From a bacterium (GTDB lineage Bacteria > Bacillota_I > Bacilli_A > RFN20 > CAG-826), in the NCBI GenBank assembly GCA_963622135.1, contig CAVFGR010000015.1, forward strand, positions 1,064 to 65,063: a DNA stretch of 64,000 bases, read 5' to 3'. Below, in pieces: positions 35,978 to 57,431 of the stretch (within the stretch, counting starts at the first letter, position 1; the number at the start of each line of letters is the position of its first letter). The notes under the pieces were generated by a model. The model had not been told where the DNA came from. It did not search any database and worked only from the letters and a program-made list of their open reading frames with translations. A program made the translations under genes and the position numbers.

Positions 35978-36676
35978 ATGGACCAATATTTAAAAGAAAC
36001 CAAAATGTTGGATTTTTCTTCTCCTTCGATTCAAAAACTAATTGATGAAAAAGGCTGGAACAACCTTAACGAATTTGATCGCCTGAAGGGCATCTACAAC
36101 TATGTTCGTGACGAAATCCTATTCGGATATAACGTCGATGATAATATCCCCGCTTCGAAGGTTCTGAAAGACGGATATGGTCAATGCAATACAAAAGGAA
36201 CGTTGTTTATGGCCTTACTTCGTGCTTGCGACATTCCTTGCCGAATCCATGGATTCACAATCGATAAGAAACTACAAAAAGGGGCAATGACGGGACTCGT
36301 CTACAAGAAAGCCCCCAAAGAAGTTTTCCATAGTTGGGTGGAAGTTTATTTCGAAGGCGAATGGTATGAACTTGAAGCCTTTATATTGGACTCCGGATAT
36401 CTAAAGAAATTGCAAACTAAATTCAGCGATTGCGATGGCTCATTCTGCGGTTATGGAGTAGCTACCGCGGACTTCAAACACCCAACGATAGATTTCAATC
36501 GAAACAACACCTACATTCAAAGCGAAGGCATCGTCAAAGATTTTGGTGTTTATGATTCTCCTGATGAACTACTTAAGGAGCATCACCAAACGATGTCTAA
36601 ATTCAAAGCCTTCTCTTACCGGCATCTTGGCCGACATTTAATGAATAGAAACGTGAAAAGGATAAGAAACGGATAA
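35978..36676 (+). CDS. transglutaminase-like cysteine protease superfamily protein
   Basis: Catalytic Cys context GYGQCNTKGTLFMALLRA with downstream His (HSWVEVY) and Asp. Confidence 0.6.
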   Translation: MDQYLKETKMLDFSSPSIQKLIDEKGWNNLNEFDRLKGIYNYVRDEILFGYNVDDNIPASKVLKDGYGQCNTKGTLFMALLRACDIPCRIHGFTIDKKLQKGAMTGLVYKKAPKEVFHSWVEVYFEGEWYELEAFILDSGYLKKLQTKFSDCDGSFCGYGVATADFKHPTIDFNRNNTYIQSEGIVKDFGVYDSPDELLKEHHQTMSKFKAFSYRHLGRHLMNRNVKRIRNG

Positions 36677-36934
36677 TTAAGCACGAAAGATAATTAATTG
36701 AAATTTGATAGGAAGCGCCACGCTTTGTACTCAAAAAATGTAAAAAGATGGTGAAGGAACTTGTTACAAGCTTATAAAAGCCACGACTTTGGGTAATGGA
36801 GAACGTTGCGACTATGCCATAAATGGATATAAAGGTCCTTATGTTAATAAACACGAGGAATATCATGGCGAATTAGGCCGACGGCGGAACCATTAACCAA
36901 ATTGACTTTGGTTTGTGCTTTAATATTAGAGCGT

Positions 36935-37012
36935 GTGCCTGTAGCTCAGTTGGATCAGAGCGCAAGCCCCCGAAGCTTGAGGCCGGCAGTTCGAATCTAC
37001 CCAGGCACGCCA
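36935..37012 (+). tRNA. tRNA-Arg-like (anticodon CCG), atypical
   Basis: Good acceptor, D and anticodon stems. The loop is CCCCGAA (C33 where U is expected). There is a C51-A63 mismatch in the T-stem. Confidence 0.55.
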
Positions 37013-37028
37013 TCCTTTATTCATTTTC

Positions 37029-37057
37029 TTGAATAAGGAAGACTTAATCCCTATAAT
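37029..37057 (+). promoter_or_regulatory. sigma-A-like promoter for tRNA-Leu(CAA)
   Basis: TTGAAT, a 17-nt spacer, then TATAAT, 19 nt upstream of the tRNA. Confidence 0.6.
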
Positions 37058-37075
37058 ACTTTTCGCACATTCAGT

Positions 37076-37162
37076 GCCCGAGTGGTGGAATGGTAGACGC
37101 GGCGGACTCAAAATCCGCTGGATGCATAATCCGTGCGGGTTCAAGTCCCGCCTTGGGCACCA
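37076..37162 (+). tRNA. tRNA-Leu (anticodon CAA), class II
   Basis: 87 nt, loop CUCAAAA, long variable arm, encoded CCA. A strong terminator (CTTCAGG-gaga-CCTGAAG then T7) lies at 37174-37199. Confidence 0.85.
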
Positions 37163-37275
37163 AAGCAAAAACGGCTTCAGGGAGACCTGAAGTTTTTTTG
37201 TTTATGATAGAAACGTTATTCAAAACACTTTCTCTCATAACTAAACGTGAAGAAACGGATATAATACAAAGGATT

Positions 37276-38136
37276 ATGGAATACGTTATCTCGATAGATT
37301 TAGGCGGAACCAACTTAAGAGTTGGCATCGTATCCGACGATTTAAAGATCGTCAAAGTTCTTAGGGAAAGAACCGTCAAAAACGACAAAGAACAACTCTT
37401 TGAGCAAACTTGTCGCATGATAGATTCTTTGCCATATAAGGAATACGGCGTCACCAAAGTGGGTATTTCGGCTTGTGGTTTAATTGACGGTGATCGTATT
37501 TCTTTTGCAGGGAATCTCGGAATCACGGATTTCGATTTGAAAGGTAAACTCGAGAAAAAATATGGATTCAAGGTAGCCATCAGAAACGACGCGAACTGCA
37601 CGGCTCTGGCGGAGGCCACTTTTGGCTCAACCAAAGATGTCAAAGACTCATATTTCATGACCATCTCGACCGGAATCGGTGGATGTCTTATTCATAATCA
37701 TGAAATGATCAATCTTCCTTTTGAAATAGGACATGAATTAATTGGATACAAAGGCGGGTACCAGGAATTCGAACAGCTCTGTTCCGGGACCGGAATCGTC
37801 AAATTATGCGCATCGAATTCGTTGGATATTGAAAACGCCGGCGATTTCTTTGCCAAGGTGGAAAACAAAGACGAGCTCCCTCTTAAGGTGCTCGATATCT
37901 GGACAGACTTAGTTGCGGTCTTTATCGCCAACACCCAAATGGAATTCAATGTTGATAAGTTCTGTTTGTCCGGCGGAGTCATGAAATCCAGCGGTTGCTT
38001 CATAAAAGACATTGAAGACAAAGCCAACAAAATATTGGCTCCATATCCATTTAAAAAGGTAAATATCGTTCTTGCCGAGATGGACCAGGATGCTGGTTTG
38101 TTCGGTGGTGTTGCCGTTGCTTTAAAAATCAAATAA
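37276..38136 (+). CDS. ROK-family sugar kinase (no HTH domain; start MEYVISIDLGGTN)
   Basis: ROK ATP-binding motif IDLGGTNLRVG and ROK signature. The longest ORF (37090) overlaps tRNA-Leu and was trimmed. Confidence 0.75.
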   Translation: MEYVISIDLGGTNLRVGIVSDDLKIVKVLRERTVKNDKEQLFEQTCRMIDSLPYKEYGVTKVGISACGLIDGDRISFAGNLGITDFDLKGKLEKKYGFKVAIRNDANCTALAEATFGSTKDVKDSYFMTISTGIGGCLIHNHEMINLPFEIGHELIGYKGGYQEFEQLCSGTGIVKLCASNSLDIENAGDFFAKVENKDELPLKVLDIWTDLVAVFIANTQMEFNVDKFCLSGGVMKSSGCFIKDIEDKANKILAPYPFKKVNIVLAEMDQDAGLFGGVAVALKIK

Positions 38137-38204
38137 ATAAAAGGCTTTGAGATAAAAATCATCAAATAAGTTGCAATCTTTATTAATAAGTATAGAGTAT
38201 GTGC

Positions 38205-38222
38205 AGTTAGCCATGACTAACT
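38205..38222. promoter_or_regulatory. palindromic operator candidate AGTTAG-N6-CTAACT (copy 1)
   Basis: AGTTAGCCATGACTAACT, 110 nt upstream of feoA. Confidence 0.5.
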
Positions 38223-38298
38223 AGTGATTGTTTTTAGTTCCTCGAGGCACTAAAAGAATCATAACGTAGCCAAAAGCTAACATATTTTTTCGAAAAGT

Positions 38299-38316
38299 AG
38301 TTAGCGGACACTAACT
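38299..38316. promoter_or_regulatory. palindromic operator candidate AGTTAG-N6-CTAACT (copy 2)
   Basis: AGTTAGCGGACACTAACT, immediately 5' of the feoA RBS AAAGGAGG. Confidence 0.5.
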
Positions 38317-38331
38317 AAAGGAGGACACGGC

Positions 38332-38544
38332 ATGCCATTGATGATTGCGCCAATGAACGTTGACCTAAAAGTCAAAAAAGTCATTGTCGATGACAAACTC
38401 AAAAAGCATCTCCAATCCTTGGGAATCACCATCGATGCGGAAATCAAAGTCATTGATAACGTGAATGGCAATCTCATCGTCATCGTCAAAGGGGTTAGAT
38501 TGGCGTTGGACAAGGGCATTGCGGGGAAAATCTTCGTTGCATAG
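38332..38544 (+). CDS. feoA: ferrous iron transport protein A
   Basis: 70 aa FeoA SH3-like fold. Confidence 0.8.
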   Translation: MPLMIAPMNVDLKVKKVIVDDKLKKHLQSLGITIDAEIKVIDNVNGNLIVIVKGVRLALDKGIAGKIFVA

Positions 38545-38556
38545 GAGGTAGGAGTT

Positions 38557-38790
38557 ATGCAGAAAAAACTAAACGAATTCGAAATAGGCGAGACTGGCCT
38601 AATTAAAAAAGTGGAAGGCGAAGGCCGTCTGCGTCGCAGGCTGTTTGATATGGGCGTCACCCCTGGCGCTACCGTCTCCATGAAGAAAAAAGCCCCTCTG
38701 GGTGACCCGATCGAGATCACTATCAGAGGTTACGAACTGTCTTTGAGAAAGGACGAAGCCAGTTTGGTCGTTATGGAGGTGGAAAAATGA
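38557..38790 (+). CDS. feoA: ferrous iron transport protein A (second copy)
   Basis: 77 aa FeoA. AGGAGGTAGGAG RBS. Confidence 0.8.
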   Translation: MQKKLNEFEIGETGLIKKVEGEGRLRRRLFDMGVTPGATVSMKKKAPLGDPIEITIRGYELSLRKDEASLVVMEVEK

Positions 38791-41114
38791 AACACGTAGC
38801 TTTAGCCGGCAACCCGAACTGTGGTAAAACCACCTTATTTAATGTTCTCACCGGATCTACGGCGCACGTTGGTAACTGGCCGGGTGTTACGGTGGATAAG
38901 AAAACCGGAACTTACAAAAAACTAGAAGAACCACTCGAAATCGTGGACCTTCCGGGCATTTATTCCCTCTCGCCATACACCCCAGAGGAAATTGTTTCTA
39001 GAAACTATATCCTCGACGAGAAACCGGATGTCGTTATCAATGTCGTTGATGCGACCAACATCGAGAGAAACCTCTATTTGACCACCCAGTTGATGGAAAT
39101 CGATGTCCCTGTTGTCATCGCCCTCAACATGTGCGACCTTCTTAAGAAAGATGGAAGCAAGATCAATCCTGAAGTCTTATCTGGCAAATTGGGAGTCCCA
39201 GTCGTTGAGATCTCCGCTTTAAGAGGCGAGGGTCTTGAAGAATTGATGAAAGCCGCTCTCGAAGCCGCCAAGACCAAGAGAGAAGGCAAGACCATGCTCG
39301 AGGATCAAAACCTCATGCATTTGGTCAGAGATGTCACCATCGCTTTCGAAGGAAAAGGCGTCGAGAATCCATTATTCCACGCTGTGAAGCTCGTCGAAGC
39401 CGATGAAATCGAAACCCAAAACCATGGCGATCTCATGCCGATGGTTACAAAGTTCAAAGAAACCTTCAGCGACGATACCTTCGGTGATGATTTCGAAGCT
39501 TTAATTGCCGATGCTCGTTATAAGTTCATCGCCAAAGAATTCGGCAAAGTCGTCGTCAAGAAAGAAGCCGAACCAGAGCCGGAAGTCATCGAGGATAATA
39601 CTGACGGCAAAAAGAAAAAGAAGAAAAAAGCCAAGGTCGGCACCAAATCCGACCGCATCGATAAGGTTTTGACCCACAGAATCTGGGGTCTCCCAATCTT
39701 TATCGTCATCATGTTCTTCTTGTTCCATTTCACCTTCTCTGAAGACTTACTCTTCATGGGCAAGATGGGACTTACCATCGAAAACGAAGCCGCCATCAAC
39801 TTCTTCACCGGCATGGGTTATGAAGGTGAAGCGATGGAAGGCATTCCTTCCTTAGGTGTCTGGCTGCAAAGCTGGATGGGATACATAACCGGGCAGATCA
39901 CCGCTGGATTCCAGTGGTTATGCAATGGTTGCAAGGACTTCGGCGAAGTCGCCGCGGCCAATGCCAGCGCCACTTGGTATGGATCTCTCATCTGCGACGG
40001 TATCTTAAATGGCTTGGATGCGGTTTGCTCCTTCATCCCGCAGATCATGCTCTTATTCTTCTTCATCGCGATTATGGAAGACACTGGCTACATGGCCCGT
40101 ATTGCCTTCATCTTGGATAGAGCCTTCAGAAAGTTCGGTCTTTCGGGCAAGGCCTTCATCCCAATGCTTACTGGCTTTGGCTGCTCGGTTCCGGGCATCA
40201 TGGCCACCCGTACGATCGAAAACGACGTCGAAAAGAACAGAACCATCCGCTTGATGACCTGCTTCTCTTGCGGCGCGAAAGCTCCTATTTGGGCTTTATT
40301 GGCCGGCGTTGCCAACGCCTGCGGATACGGCTATGGCGATGTCTTCGTCTTCACCATTTATATCGGCGGTATCGCGTTAGCGATTATCCTTGCCATCTTC
40401 ATGCGTGTCTTCTCCAAAGAAAAGTACGTTTCCCCATTCATCATGGAATTGCCGCAATACCATTTGCCGCAAGCGAGAAACGTTGCCGCTCACCTTTGGG
40501 AGAAACTGAAACACTACGTCATCAAAGCCGCGACTATCTTAACTGCTTCCTTGATCGTCATTTGGTTCCTTAAGACCTTTGGCGTCGAAGGCGGCAAGTT
40601 CTGCATGGTCGAGGATATCGATCATTCCTTGATTGGCTACATCGGCATGGGCTTGAAGTACATCTTCTATCCATGTGGCTGGGCTATCAATGCGGATGGT
40701 TGGAAATACGCTGCCGCTTCTGTCACTGGCTTAGTTGCCAAGGAAGACGTCGTCGGCACTATGGCGGTCTTGTTCAACGGTGGAAACGAGGATTCCCTCG
40801 CCGAAGCCTTGACCAGTTTATCCGCTTCAGGCGTTTATTCCTTCGCTATCTTCAACTTATTGACCTTCCCTTGCATGGCGGCCATCTCTACCGCCAGAGC
40901 TGAGCAGACCAGAAAGGAATTCTGGAAGACCTTGCTCTTCTGGTTCAGCGTTTCTTACATCGCTTCCGCCTTGGTTTATTGGGTTGGAACCTTGTATGAG
41001 ATTGCCTGGTGGGGTGGATTGCTCGTCACCTTGGCTCTCATCGGTGGCGTTGTCACCGCGGCCATCTTGGTCGTCAGAGGCAATAAGAAAGCCGCTCAAA
41101 AGACCGTTGCTTAA
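38787..41114 (+). CDS. feoB: ferrous iron transport protein B
   Basis: G-domain GNPNCGKTTLFN, the gate motif and a C-terminal polytopic permease. Contains a K7 insert. Confidence 0.92.
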   Translation: MKHVALAGNPNCGKTTLFNVLTGSTAHVGNWPGVTVDKKTGTYKKLEEPLEIVDLPGIYSLSPYTPEEIVSRNYILDEKPDVVINVVDATNIERNLYLTTQLMEIDVPVVIALNMCDLLKKDGSKINPEVLSGKLGVPVVEISALRGEGLEELMKAALEAAKTKREGKTMLEDQNLMHLVRDVTIAFEGKGVENPLFHAVKLVEADEIETQNHGDLMPMVTKFKETFSDDTFGDDFEALIADARYKFIAKEFGKVVVKKEAEPEPEVIEDNTDGKKKKKKKAKVGTKSDRIDKVLTHRIWGLPIFIVIMFFLFHFTFSEDLLFMGKMGLTIENEAAINFFTGMGYEGEAMEGIPSLGVWLQSWMGYITGQITAGFQWLCNGCKDFGEVAAANASATWYGSLICDGILNGLDAVCSFIPQIMLLFFFIAIMEDTGYMARIAFILDRAFRKFGLSGKAFIPMLTGFGCSVPGIMATRTIENDVEKNRTIRLMTCFSCGAKAPIWALLAGVANACGYGYGDVFVFTIYIGGIALAIILAIFMRVFSKEKYVSPFIMELPQYHLPQARNVAAHLWEKLKHYVIKAATILTASLIVIWFLKTFGVEGGKFCMVEDIDHSLIGYIGMGLKYIFYPCGWAINADGWKYAAASVTGLVAKEDVVGTMAVLFNGGNEDSLAEALTSLSASGVYSFAIFNLLTFPCMAAISTARAEQTRKEFWKTLLFWFSVSYIASALVYWVGTLYEIAWWGGLLVTLALIGGVVTAAILVVRGNKKAAQKTVA

Positions 41115-41116
41115 TA

Positions 41117-41521
41117 ATGGAATGGTATGAATATCTGATTATCGTCGTCGCCGTCTTCTTGGTGGTGGGGCCGATAGTTAGTTACTTCGTTAAAAAGAAA
41201 AAAGGCACTTTGAAATGCGAGTGCGGTCACCTTCAAAGTGAATGCACTGGTAACTGTGCCTCTTGTTCCCTGACTAAAAAAGATAGCAAAGGCAAAAAAG
41301 GCACTTTGACTTATGTTGTTTCCGTCCAAGGGATGAAATGTGGTATGTGCGAAAGCCATATCAACGACATCATCCGCAAGGAATTCGACGTGGTCAAAGT
41401 CAAATCATCGCGAAAGAGCCAAACCACGACAATCGTCACCAAGAGAATCTTAAACCCCTCCAAAATAAGATCAGCAATTGGTTCTCTTGGCTACAACGTT
41501 CTCTCGGTGAGGCTTAAATAG
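41117..41521 (+). CDS. FeoB-associated Cys-rich membrane peptide fused to a heavy-metal-associated (HMA) domain
   Basis: N-terminal TM followed by CECGH..C..C.SC, then GMKCGMCESHI...AIGSLGYNV (GMxCxxC HMA fold). Confidence 0.7.
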   Translation: MEWYEYLIIVVAVFLVVGPIVSYFVKKKKGTLKCECGHLQSECTGNCASCSLTKKDSKGKKGTLTYVVSVQGMKCGMCESHINDIIRKEFDVVKVKSSRKSQTTTIVTKRILNPSKIRSAIGSLGYNVLSVRLK

Positions 41522-41560: not shown

Positions 41561-41700
41561 TTTGTGCCGATGGAATCACACACTTAATGAAATCAATAAG
41601 CCGGCTTTCAAATGTAAAAAACGATATGGTTGCTCTTTGTTATATTTATTGTGATACAATAATTCATTCCGTATGCCTTTTTAGGCAACAAGGAGAATTT

Positions 41701-44121
41701 ATGAGAAAAATTAGTAAATTAACAATTCTGACATTAGGGGCGATCGCTTCTGCGTGTTTGGCCTCTTGCGGGCCTGATGCCAGCGATTCCTCTGATCATA
41801 GCAGCGTTCAGCAAACGCTTACCAGCATCAAAATCGTCTCCGGCTCCATCAAGACCAGCTTCAGCCAAGGCGCAACCCCGAATTATAACAATCTCGCCAT
41901 CAACCTTCTCGACCAAGACGAGAAGAAGATGGATACCTTAAAATGGGTTGATAACAAGGACAAGATCACTTTCACGGAAATCGATACTTCCGAGTTGGCG
42001 ACGGATAAGGTCTTCACCGTTACCTATAACGATGGTCAAAACGAATTCACCGACACTTTGAAATACAATGTCGTTGAGGCCTACACTCTTTCTTCCTGGG
42101 CCGCCAATCCGAATTATTCCTATACGACCGGATATCAGGCCAACAACAAGATCTCTACCGACGAAGATAACTTGGAGAAGGGATTCATGAAGACCGCCAC
42201 CTTCTATGTTGGCAACATGAACTCCGTCAATTTGCTTCCAGAATTAAATGGTTTGAACAAAGAGACCTATGAGGTTACTGAACTTACCACCATTCCAACC
42301 GGCGCGACTGTTAAATTGGTTTCCGAAGGCAAGGATATGGTCGTTGACTCTTATATTGAAAACGCCGATTCCTTCATCAAAGATGGCCAATTGAAATTCA
42401 AAGATGGTGTCACCGGCTCTTTCGCTATCACCCTCAGCTATTCAGGCTTGCAGGATATCGTTTATAACGTCGAAGTCGTCGATGCTTATAACGTCAGCAA
42501 AGCGACCGATTTGTACGCTTTCTACACTAACAACACCAACGATTCTTCTATCTTCACTCCAGTCCATGAATTCAAGAAAGAATTAGGATTGCCTGATGCC
42601 GATAACATTGTTATCCAAAACGACATCACCATCGGCAAGAACGACATCCCTTCCGCCTTCATCTGGCAAGAAAATTGCGACGAAGTCGTCAAAGGAAGCT
42701 TGAAAGACTGGATCCGTCTTTATGAGCATCAATTCGATGACGCCAATGAAACCGCCACTGTCTATGGCAACCTCCATAAGATTTCCTTCAACACCGATGA
42801 AGACGACGAGAATATGTTCCCGTATGTCATAACCGACTCACAGGAAGGTATCGCCCAAAGCGAATCCAAGCCAATCTCTTGTCACGCTTCTTTGTTCTAT
42901 GGCACTTATGGCGCCAATCAAGATCCGTTCAATTGCCAGATTATCTTCAAAGATCTTCAGGCTTCCGGCAATAATGGCGTCGATGATACCGCCACGACAG
43001 CCAAAAAAGTTGGTCCGATGTTCTTGAAGTCCGAAGTTAACTCCAAATTTGACAACGTTTTGGTTAACAGTTTCTATATGGCTGCCATGGCTGACGGTCC
43101 TTATTCTTGGTATGAGAACGGCGTTAAGAAGTATGGCAAGCAAATCGATGGTGTCTTCATTGATCCAAAAATCGAAATTGATTCCTGTCGTTTCAATGAC
43201 TCCGCCAACGCTGCCCTCTATTTCTTCGGTCAGTCCAAAGGCGATATCAAGAACTCCGATATCACCAAAGCCGGTGGACCATTGATCTTCACCAACCCAC
43301 AAATTGAGCCGTTGCCAGATGATGTCATCTCCGCGTTAAGCTACGCCCCGACATTCTCCACTGAAGTCAATATCGATGAAAACAGCTTCCTTTCCAACTA
43401 TACCGCTGGCAAAGGCGGATGGTTCGATGCTTATAGTGCCAGCGCTATTGCCGGAACCTTACAATCCATGGATGGACTTTTCACCCCTTATGGCATGTCC
43501 TTCTTAAGAACGAAGAACGATGTTAAGAAATTCAATCTTATCTTAGTTAATCTTCCTATTTCTGGAGAAGAAGCCCTTGCGTTGCCATCTTTGGATGAAG
43601 GCTGCACCAATGTCACCATTAAGAAAGGCAACAACGTTGTTTACAGCACCCTTGATGGTTATCAAGAAGTTATGACTGCTTATGCCGCTCTCGCGGCCGC
43701 CACTCAATCTGCTGCTTCGGCTGAGGAATTAGCCACCCTCTATCAAGCTTATGCCGATGCTATCTCCAGCAGTTTCTATGGCAATAACTTAGCCTACGCT
43801 AACATTCAGAACGAAATGGTCTTTGCGGCCACTAACGGCGAAGGCAAACATGAATTTGGCATCGTCAATGTTGATCAAAGCAGTGGACAATACTATCTCT
43901 GCTCCAGCGACTACGCCATCAAAGCCGGAATGGCTGCCGCTAGCATCCCTGTCACCGTTCCAAGCAGCTATCAGCCAGGCGAAACTATGAAGAGCGCTGG
44001 ATTCTTATCCGCCACCATCAACGGAAACATCGTTTATGGCTCTTCCCAGCTTACTACCCCGACCGCCTATAACGGCGCCAACAACTACGGCGTCATCTTA
44101 GGCGACTATCACGCTATCTAA
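41701..44121 (+). CDS. large surface lipoprotein (807 aa), function unknown
   Basis: Signal peptide with lipobox LASC (MRKISKLTILTLGAIASACLASCG). AAGGAGAA RBS. Asn/Asp/Gly-rich repeats. The longest ORF (41587) was trimmed. Confidence 0.7.
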   Translation: MRKISKLTILTLGAIASACLASCGPDASDSSDHSSVQQTLTSIKIVSGSIKTSFSQGATPNYNNLAINLLDQDEKKMDTLKWVDNKDKITFTEIDTSELATDKVFTVTYNDGQNEFTDTLKYNVVEAYTLSSWAANPNYSYTTGYQANNKISTDEDNLEKGFMKTATFYVGNMNSVNLLPELNGLNKETYEVTELTTIPTGATVKLVSEGKDMVVDSYIENADSFIKDGQLKFKDGVTGSFAITLSYSGLQDIVYNVEVVDAYNVSKATDLYAFYTNNTNDSSIFTPVHEFKKELGLPDADNIVIQNDITIGKNDIPSAFIWQENCDEVVKGSLKDWIRLYEHQFDDANETATVYGNLHKISFNTDEDDENMFPYVITDSQEGIAQSESKPISCHASLFYGTYGANQDPFNCQIIFKDLQASGNNGVDDTATTAKKVGPMFLKSEVNSKFDNVLVNSFYMAAMADGPYSWYENGVKKYGKQIDGVFIDPKIEIDSCRFNDSANAALYFFGQSKGDIKNSDITKAGGPLIFTNPQIEPLPDDVISALSYAPTFSTEVNIDENSFLSNYTAGKGGWFDAYSASAIAGTLQSMDGLFTPYGMSFLRTKNDVKKFNLILVNLPISGEEALALPSLDEGCTNVTIKKGNNVVYSTLDGYQEVMTAYAALAAATQSAASAEELATLYQAYADAISSSFYGNNLAYANIQNEMVFAATNGEGKHEFGIVNVDQSSGQYYLCSSDYAIKAGMAAASIPVTVPSSYQPGETMKSAGFLSATINGNIVYGSSQLTTPTAYNGANNYGVILGDYHAI

Positions 44122-56251: not shown

Positions 56252-56269
56252 AGTTAGCATTCGCTAACG
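56252..56269. promoter_or_regulatory. palindromic operator candidate AGTTAG-N6-CTAACG (copy 3)
   Basis: AGTTAGCATTCGCTAACG, 15 nt upstream of a TATAAT box (56284-56289) and 50 nt upstream of the antiporter start. Confidence 0.5.
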
Positions 56270-56318
56270 TAATATACGGGCCTTATAATGTGTCCCGTTG
56301 CCTTAAGGAGGCAGTATT

Positions 56319-57431
56319 ATGTGGTGGATATATCCGGTTTATCTAGTCTTGGTCGCAGCGGTGGTTTATGTTTCCATCAAGCTTGGCGATATGGTCGATT
56401 TATTGGACAAGAAAACCAAAATCAGCGGCGCTTTTATTGGCGGCGTTCTTTTGGCGGCCGTTACCTCCTTGCCAGAATTATTCACCGCCATCTCGTCTGT
56501 CCTTATCGTTGAAGATCCTAGCTTGGCCATCGGTGATATCTTGGGCTCCGATATTTTCAATTTGATGATTTTAGGCGTATATACCTTGATGTTTTTCAAA
56601 AACTTCAGGCATTGCAAAATCAACAAGTTCCATATTTACTCATTGCTCGTTTTGATTTTCTTCTACGCTTGCACGGCCTATGCGGTGTTCGCCCCTGCTT
56701 CTTGGCAACCGATGTTGGGTGATATCAATGCTTTCAGCATTATCATCTTCATCGTTTATGTTCTTACTATCATCTTCCAGCCAAAATCCGAGGAAAAAGA
56801 AGAGGAAGTCAGTGCTGTGCCTGAAAAGGAATCGAAGCTTTCTTTGAAAGTCATTATCATCTTGTTCATCGTCTTATCCATTGTCTTAATCGGCCTTTCC
56901 ATTGGCATCTCCTTAGTAACCGAAAAGATCATCGACCAGATTCCGGCCTTGGCGGGTTCTGTCGGCGGAGCGATCCTTCTTGGTGTTTGCACTTCTCTTC
57001 CTGAAGTCATCTCGACCTTCCATCTGTTCCGTTTGAAAAACTACGATGCCGGTTATGGCAACATGATTGGCTCTTGCACCTTCAATTTCTCCATTTTGGC
57101 CATTGCCGACTTCATTTCATGGGAAGGCTTATATAAGGCCGATGAACAGGAAACAATCCGTAAGTGGATTTCCGAGCGTGGCATTTTCTGCAATGACGCC
57201 AGCGCCCAATGGATGATTATTTTTGGCGCGATCGTTATCCTTGCCGTTTTGGTCACGACCTGCCTTAAATGCTTCACTAAATTCTTCGAGGGCAAGGCAA
57301 GAGGACTTGTCGCCGCTATCTTCTTGGCGCTTATCGTCCTCGGTGGCTATGTTTGTTCGTTGGTATTAAAAATCGATCTGATCAATGGTACAGTTCCGGC
57401 CACGACTAGCCTAATAGCTATTCTAAATTGA
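56319..57431 (+). CDS. CaCA-family cation (Ca2+/Na+)-type antiporter (YrbG-like)
   Basis: Two alpha-repeats with GxxxxAAVTSLPEL and GVCTSLPEV. AAGGAGG RBS. Confidence 0.8.
   Translation: MWWIYPVYLVLVAAVVYVSIKLGDMVDLLDKKTKISGAFIGGVLLAAVTSLPELFTAISSVLIVEDPSLAIGDILGSDIFNLMILGVYTLMFFKNFRHCKINKFHIYSLLVLIFFYACTAYAVFAPASWQPMLGDINAFSIIIFIVYVLTIIFQPKSEEKEEEVSAVPEKESKLSLKVIIILFIVLSIVLIGLSIGISLVTEKIIDQIPALAGSVGGAILLGVCTSLPEVISTFHLFRLKNYDAGYGNMIGSCTFNFSILAIADFISWEGLYKADEQETIRKWISERGIFCNDASAQWMIIFGAIVILAVLVTTCLKCFTKFFEGKARGLVAAIFLALIVLGGYVCSLVLKIDLINGTVPATTSLIAILN

Follow-up and report, generated by a model that had tools for sequence, protein, structure and literature searches.

The window, that is, the whole 64-kb stretch of DNA that was analysed, carries a feo operon on its forward strand, preceded by tRNA-Arg, tRNA-Leu, and then a ROK-family kinase gene ending at position 38136. 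The listed 348-aa open reading frame of this kinase (37090-38136) overlaps tRNA-Leu (37076-37162), and its true start probably lies near 37291 (MEYVISIDLGG), a position from which the match to Pfam ROK is full-length. The operon begins with two feoA genes, feoA-1 (70 aa, 38332-38544, with its ATG at 38332; Pfam FeoA, E = 1.3e-11) and feoA-2 (77 aa, 38557-38790; Pfam FeoA, E = 4.1e-22), followed by feoB (775 aa, 38787-41114), whose product matches Pfam FeoB_N, Gate, FeoB_C, and FeoB_Cyto. The FeoB linker between the cytosolic and membrane parts contains a seven-lysine run (DGKKKKKKKAKV), encoded by an A-rich tract at about 39600-39650. The last gene (41117-41521) encodes a small membrane protein that combines a Cys-rich segment with an HMA domain at its C terminus (Pfam HMA, E = 1.9e-5), an unusual partner for Feo; its match to FeoB_associated is weak (E = 0.03, below the cutoff), and its homologues follow feoB in four related loci (L001-L004).

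The initial annotation had drawn attention to two copies of the palindrome AGTTAG-N6-CTAACT ahead of feoA-feoA-feoB, and both proved to be exact: predicted operator 1 at 38205-38222 (AGTTAGCCATGACTAACT) and predicted operator 2 at 38299-38316 (AGTTAGCGGACACTAACT), neither assigned to a strand. The second copy, located in the leader, abuts the ribosome-binding site (RBS) of feoA-1 as described, the RBS being read from the forward-strand sequence as AAAGGAGG at 38317-38324. Likewise, the first copy, reported to lie about 30 nt past a TTGCAA hexamer, starts 29 nt after it. This -35-like hexamer (38171-38176, forward strand, read from the sequence) is separated by 16 nt from a -10-like hexamer, TAGAGT (38193-38198, forward strand), and the same spacing occurs in the closest relatives L001 (TTGCAT) and L005 (TTGCAA), where TAGAGT is identical and the hexamers are kept while the spacer between them differs among the three sequences. 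The feo promoter is a prediction based on these hexamers, which L001 and L005 conserve, and a sigma-70 scanner with a 9-of-12 threshold found no promoter at feo. From the end of TAGAGT to the G of GTTAG in operator 1, the distance is 7 nt, which is also the modal distance across related promoters, and operator 1 therefore lies over the predicted transcription start.

Between the two operators, the 5′ leader contains a stable forward-strand hairpin (38224-38262, -14.7 kcal/mol, z -2.35), with a T-run downstream of it (38285-38290). A comparable hairpin in L005 (L005:5429-5478) has the same base, AUGGUU...AAUCAU, and another interior, and the extra 40 nt or so that separate the two operators in the lineage of the window correspond to the hairpin sequence. 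A consensus fold of the leader, computed from three sequences, gave no clear outcome, and the hairpin may be a leader element possibly outside the switch.

A pattern search of the whole window with at most one mismatch returned three copies of the motif against 0.06 expected, a number attained in none of 100 shuffles of the window. The third copy (56252-56269, no strand assigned, AGTTAGCATTCGCTAACG) has one mismatch and, in keeping with the initial annotation, lies ahead of a cation antiporter gene. Allowing two mismatches added just three further matches, all intragenic, against 1.27 expected by chance. A sequence at 43787-43804, ACTTAGCCTACGCTAACA, contains an exact TTAGC-N4-GCTAA core within an 844-aa open reading frame (41587-44121), some 320 nt ahead of the next gene, and may be a weak site or a chance occurrence.

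Distribution and placement of the palindrome

For comparison, 80 genomic loci encoding FeoB relatives were fetched, the nearest of which come from uncultured gut or rumen Bacilli labelled Anaeroplasmataceae, Erysipelotrichaceae, or "Bacilli bacterium". In nearly all of the loci L001-L037, GTTAG-N6-CTAAC is found close upstream of feoA, mostly in two copies, with arms that are invariant and spacers that vary freely. An exact-arm search fixes the arms by its own pattern, and the conservation of the arms rests instead on an unbiased count of every 5-mer inverted repeat whose gap lies between 0 and 12. GTTAG-N6-CTAAC was the top-ranked dyad in this count: of 35 feo upstream regions (34 loci and the window), 28 contained it, compared with 1 of 34 coding controls. 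The motif is, on this comparative evidence, a conserved candidate operator and not a coincidence, and (A/G)GTTAG-N6-CTAAC(T) can be put forward as the operator consensus for Feo across a large group of uncultured Bacilli from the gut and rumen. It also provides a search pattern ready for rebuilding the metal regulon of these organisms.

The placement of the motif is similarly regular, overlapping the predicted core promoter elements of a metal-transport operon. Of 32 upstream regions (from 31 loci and the window), 26 contain a -10 hexamer with a -35 hexamer at 16-18 bp, and a site starts 5-10 nt (most often 7) past this -10 hexamer, so that one operator covers the predicted transcription start. 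In the commonest layout, the promoter is flanked by the two sites, in the order site 1, 6-7 nt, TTTACA or TTGACA, 16-17 nt, TATAAT, about 7 nt, site 2, and RBS, with site starts 58 bp apart. Unlike this arrangement, the window has both sites 3′ of the promoter, with starts 94 bp apart, and the promoter is likewise upstream of both sites in L001, L005, L013, and L023. The second site is therefore the movable one among loci, located either 5′ of the -35 hexamer or downstream in the leader. Helical phasing or looping was considered as a requirement and set aside, given start-to-start spacings of 25, 34, 44, 56-61, 94, 95, and 103 bp. In the window, operator 1 is probably the primary repression site, and predicted operator 2 is the auxiliary one.

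The position of the second site also bears on an alternative reading, in which the palindromes would work as RNA hairpins of the 5′ leader and influence how stable the mRNA is or how accessible the RBS is. Such a role would suit the layout in the window, where the predicted transcript includes both copies, either of which can pair into a 6-bp stem, and where copy 2 abuts the RBS. In most relatives, however, one copy with the same sequence lies 5′ of the -35 hexamer, where it would not be transcribed with feo, and the palindrome would therefore be recognized as DNA and not as RNA. Moreover, the differences seen in the arms (in the third copy of the window and in the 1-mismatch copies of L002, L004, and the Fibrobacterota loci) are one-sided, with no paired changes; the leader fold is unexceptional (z -1.68); and an Rfam covariance-model scan of the feo leader (36500-39000) gave no relevant match at E ≤ 10. 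A role as RNA hairpins is consequently regarded as very unlikely.

The linked regulator and its proposed mode of action

The initial annotation had suggested a dedicated metal-responsive repressor, whose family can now be named. Clustering of all open reading frames of L001-L037 revealed a protein of 120-137 aa in 22 of the 37 loci, nearly always encoded directly 5′ of feoA and separated from it by the stretch that holds the sites. It matches Pfam Fe_dep_repress (44-46 bits, cutoff 26) and Fe_dep_repr_C (about 50 bits, cutoff 27), and, with both domains over the gathering score, is classified from its sequence as a two-domain member of the DtxR superfamily. Among solved structures, it lies nearest to E. 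coli MntR (PDB 2h09, E = 1.6e-13) and to B. subtilis MntR. Among family models, it scores best against those of MntR, yet well under the NCBIfam MntR equivalog cutoffs (PRK11050, 87.9 versus 153 bits; PRK03902, 74.7 or 60.4 versus 138 bits). The recognition-helix segment FSKPSVS is conserved in the linked regulators, and a profile search recovered at least 8000 sequence clusters, which are unnamed in the sources searched.

The association extends across phyla, in a second arrangement. In 12 Fibrobacterota/Chitinispirillia loci, a three-domain DtxR protein with a C-terminal FeoA domain is encoded upstream of feoB, preceded in each case by GTTAGA-N4-TC(T/A)AAC, and about 30 Bacteroidota loci, like most of the remaining loci, have neither the regulator nor the motif (Fisher p = 4e-5 for the association of regulator and box).

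In the 64-kb window itself, no DtxR/MntR-family gene was detected, either by tblastn (best E = 0.06) or by a six-frame profile search (nothing at E ≤ 10), and the flanking sequence fetched for L001-L005, the closest relatives, likewise yielded none. Because the operator arms of the window are identical to those at regulator-adjacent loci, we infer that the regulator is encoded elsewhere in this genome. The same absence could be taken to mean that the palindromes are bound here by a protein of another family, Fur-like, Rrf2, or other, and that the DtxR link holds for relatives but not for this genome. A weak Fur-like sequence (AGATAAAAATCATCA, 38150-38164) with three mismatches just 5′ of the -35 hexamer might be read in the same way. 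The latter, however, is at chance level, with six such matches in the window against 5.1 expected, and unlinked regulator genes are common. Together with the identity of the arms to those next to DtxR-family genes and a box geometry typical of that family, this makes binding by another family very unlikely.

The two palindromes are thus interpreted, with considerable confidence though from sequence comparison, as operators for a homodimeric two-domain metalloregulator of the DtxR/MntR family that controls feo. According to this model, when metal is plentiful in the cytoplasm, the metal-loaded dimer would bind AGTTAG-N6-CTAACT, and a dimer on operator 1, over the transcription start and 7 nt past the -10 hexamer, would block RNA polymerase. 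Located at the RBS, 94 bp further along, operator 2 would either raise occupancy or serve as a roadblock. When metal becomes scarce, the apo-protein would leave, allowing transcription of feoA-feoA-feoB-HMA. We infer that binding is both metal-dependent and repressive.

Comparison with known metal boxes supports the family assignment. The absence of a Fur box, noted initially, is borne out, as no significant match to the 7-1-7 Fur box (TGATAATnATTATCA) was found at the feo promoter, where the 3-mismatch sequence mentioned above is the nearest. The control by Fur, PerR, or Zur known from Firmicutes feo follows the same logic as the proposed switch, in that a repressor carrying its metal acts on the promoter of uptake genes, whereas both the protein family and the box are unrelated, and feo in these uncultured Bacilli is apparently not under Fur control. 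The 19-bp DtxR/IdeR iron box belongs to the same protein family and has GTTAG/CTAAC-like half-sites, but the IdeR box has 1 bp between its GTTAG and CTAAC arms and is bound by two dimers. No match to this box (TTAGGTTAGSCTAACCTAA) was found in the window at up to three mismatches. The earlier description of DtxR-like half-sites with a different spacing is therefore accurate and can be made more specific, since TTAG-N6-CTAA is the published spacing of E. coli MntR, TroR, and SirR.

The enterobacterial MntR box, including that of E. coli, is AACATAGCnnnnGCTATGTT (PMC1698941), and in Haloferax, TroR (iron) binds TTTAGGC-NNN-CCTAAA and SirR (manganese) binds TTTwGAnnnnTCwAAA (PMC10783522); together with the box of the window, these share the geometry T(T/A)AG-N6-CT(A/T)A. 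Like the enterobacterial box, the palindrome of the window has a TAGC-N4-GCTA core with the same spacing at a metal-importer promoter, and MntR and the regulator proposed here are both two-domain dimers of the DtxR family, the linked regulator matching MntR best in sequence. There are nevertheless clear distinctions between them: the outer arms are GTTAG here and CATAG in MntR boxes, the target is feo instead of mntH or sitABCD, and the linked regulator has Cys at the Glu99-equivalent position and a score far under the equivalog cutoff. The Haloferax systems share the TTAG-N6-CTAA geometry but are archaeal, with archaeal promoter architecture, other flanking bases, and siderophore-gene targets. 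In Haloferax volcanii, TroR acts at tandem motifs in iron-uptake promoters, either copy of which suffices for repression (PMC10783522).

In mechanism, the predicted feo switch of the window amounts to an ordinary metal-dependent repressor acting at an operator typical of its family. A literature search for a DtxR-type feo operator or regulator of this kind in Firmicutes found no description. A regulator family and an operator consensus can now be assigned to Feo of uncultured gut and rumen Bacilli.

Iron or manganese as the effector

The effector is expected to be Fe2+ or Mn2+, with Fe2+ slightly favoured. In an ungapped alignment with B. subtilis MntR, the linked regulator has Asp, Glu, His, Glu, and His at the positions of D8, E11, H77, E102, and H103, and an invariant Cys at that of E99, so that five of the six ligands of the binuclear Mn site are kept. 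DtxR/IdeR iron sensors are marked by the primary-site ligands Met10, Cys102, Glu105, and His106 together with a third, SH3-like domain; the linked regulators of Bacilli share the Cys, Glu, and His, have Asp in place of Met10, and lack the third domain. The result is a hybrid sensor site, Asp/Glu/His/Cys/Glu/His, with Asp at position 9 as in Mn-sensing MntR and Cys at position 100 as in Fe-sensing DtxR.

The same operator and regulator family could accordingly serve a manganese-sensing, MntR-type regulon, in which Feo imports Mn2+ as does P. gingivalis FeoB2, and the antiporter site of the window might mediate control of a Mn exporter. The linked regulator is nearest to MntR proteins, and it keeps Asp at the first site, the ligand that distinguishes MntR from DtxR/IdeR (PMC11672702). 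A close parallel is PgMntR, where an identical Asp/Cys/Glu/His set occurs in the regulator of the Mn transporter FeoB2; Mn2+ activates this protein, and Fe2+ releases it (PMC4805248). Both are DtxR-family regulators of a FeoB-type transporter with a hybrid site, although PgMntR has two extra C-terminal FeoA domains and belongs to another phylum; the comparison covers the proteins. A further hint of manganese comes from antiporter homologues carrying yybP-ykoY riboswitch matches with GGGAGUAG and CAACAUAC loops, as described below.

Several of these lines of evidence, however, have a counterpart pointing the other way. The Glu99 ligand of MntR is replaced by an invariant Cys, and the NCBIfam MntR cutoffs are missed widely (88 versus 153 bits). 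The riboswitch matches lie under the Rfam gathering score, and the antiporter site is a single, unconserved copy with one mismatch. In addition, DtxR control of FeoAB in archaea has been treated as iron-responsive (PMC8516115). Feo systems are mostly Fe2+ importers. Manganese sensing by the linked regulator is therefore a tentative reading, to which we give less weight than to its opposite.

A broader form of this idea, which we consider unlikely, is that the feo-linked regulators make up a distinct clade, sharing the Asp/Glu/His/Cys/Glu/His site and comprising the two-domain proteins of gut Bacilli and the three-domain proteins of Fibrobacterota, that senses Mn2+ or the Mn/Fe ratio instead of Fe2+ by itself, clamps the promoter with a stereotyped two-operator cassette, and also controls a CaCA-type antiporter. 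If Mn2+ sensing were true, "Feo" in these uncultured gut lineages would be under MntR-like control and might import manganese, and the feo switch would be somewhat more interesting for it. The hybrid Asp/Cys site poses a testable question in this respect, namely whether iron or manganese is read.

Other genes associated with the box

Under the preferred reading of a DtxR/MntR-family operator, further genes can be proposed as regulon members. In three related loci (L007, L015, and L020), the same box lies past the -10 hexamer ahead of operons encoding an HMA protein, a ZIP transporter, and the regulator, and the full two-site 58-bp cassette precedes operons encoding an ABC ATPase, an FtsX-type permease, an HMA protein, a ZIP transporter, and the regulator in two others (L101:5814-5887 and L102:3127-3200). 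Because the box precedes operons that include the regulator gene, the regulator is likely to be autoregulated in genomes with such box-ZIP-regulator operons. The putative regulon in relatives thus far includes Feo, the ZIP transporter, HMA-domain proteins, and the FtsX-type ABC transporter. HMA domains recur within it in two forms: fused to a Cys-rich membrane segment after feoB in the window, and as a free 82-aa protein encoded ahead of the ZIP transporter under the same box elsewhere (L015:3969-4217; L101:8911-9159).

The third copy in the window stops 50 nt short of the start codon of a gene for a cation antiporter of the Na_Ca_ex (CaCA) family (56319-57431, forward strand; Pfam Na_Ca_ex, E = 1.8e-23), where it overlaps the -35 position of the predicted antiporter promoter and ends 14 nt before TATAAT (56284-56289). 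The antiporter gene may tentatively be counted as a regulon member, and the box was absent upstream of 19 metagenomic antiporter homologues with 47-69% identity. One-mismatch matches of the form G(A/G)TAG(A/G)ATTGACTAAC at five related loci probably reflect a TTGACT -35 hexamer.

Upstream of two antiporter homologues (L088:4837-4972 and L091:4685-4814), sub-threshold matches to the yybP-ykoY Mn2+ riboswitch were observed, with scores of 21.4 and 14.8 bits, respectively, against a gathering score of 45; both contain the conserved GGGAGUAG and CAACAUAC loops together with a terminator. These sequence features hint that the antiporter family may export manganese. Apart from the transporter operons, a 1-mismatch copy of the box is also found ahead of a histidine kinase gene at position 13527 of L101.
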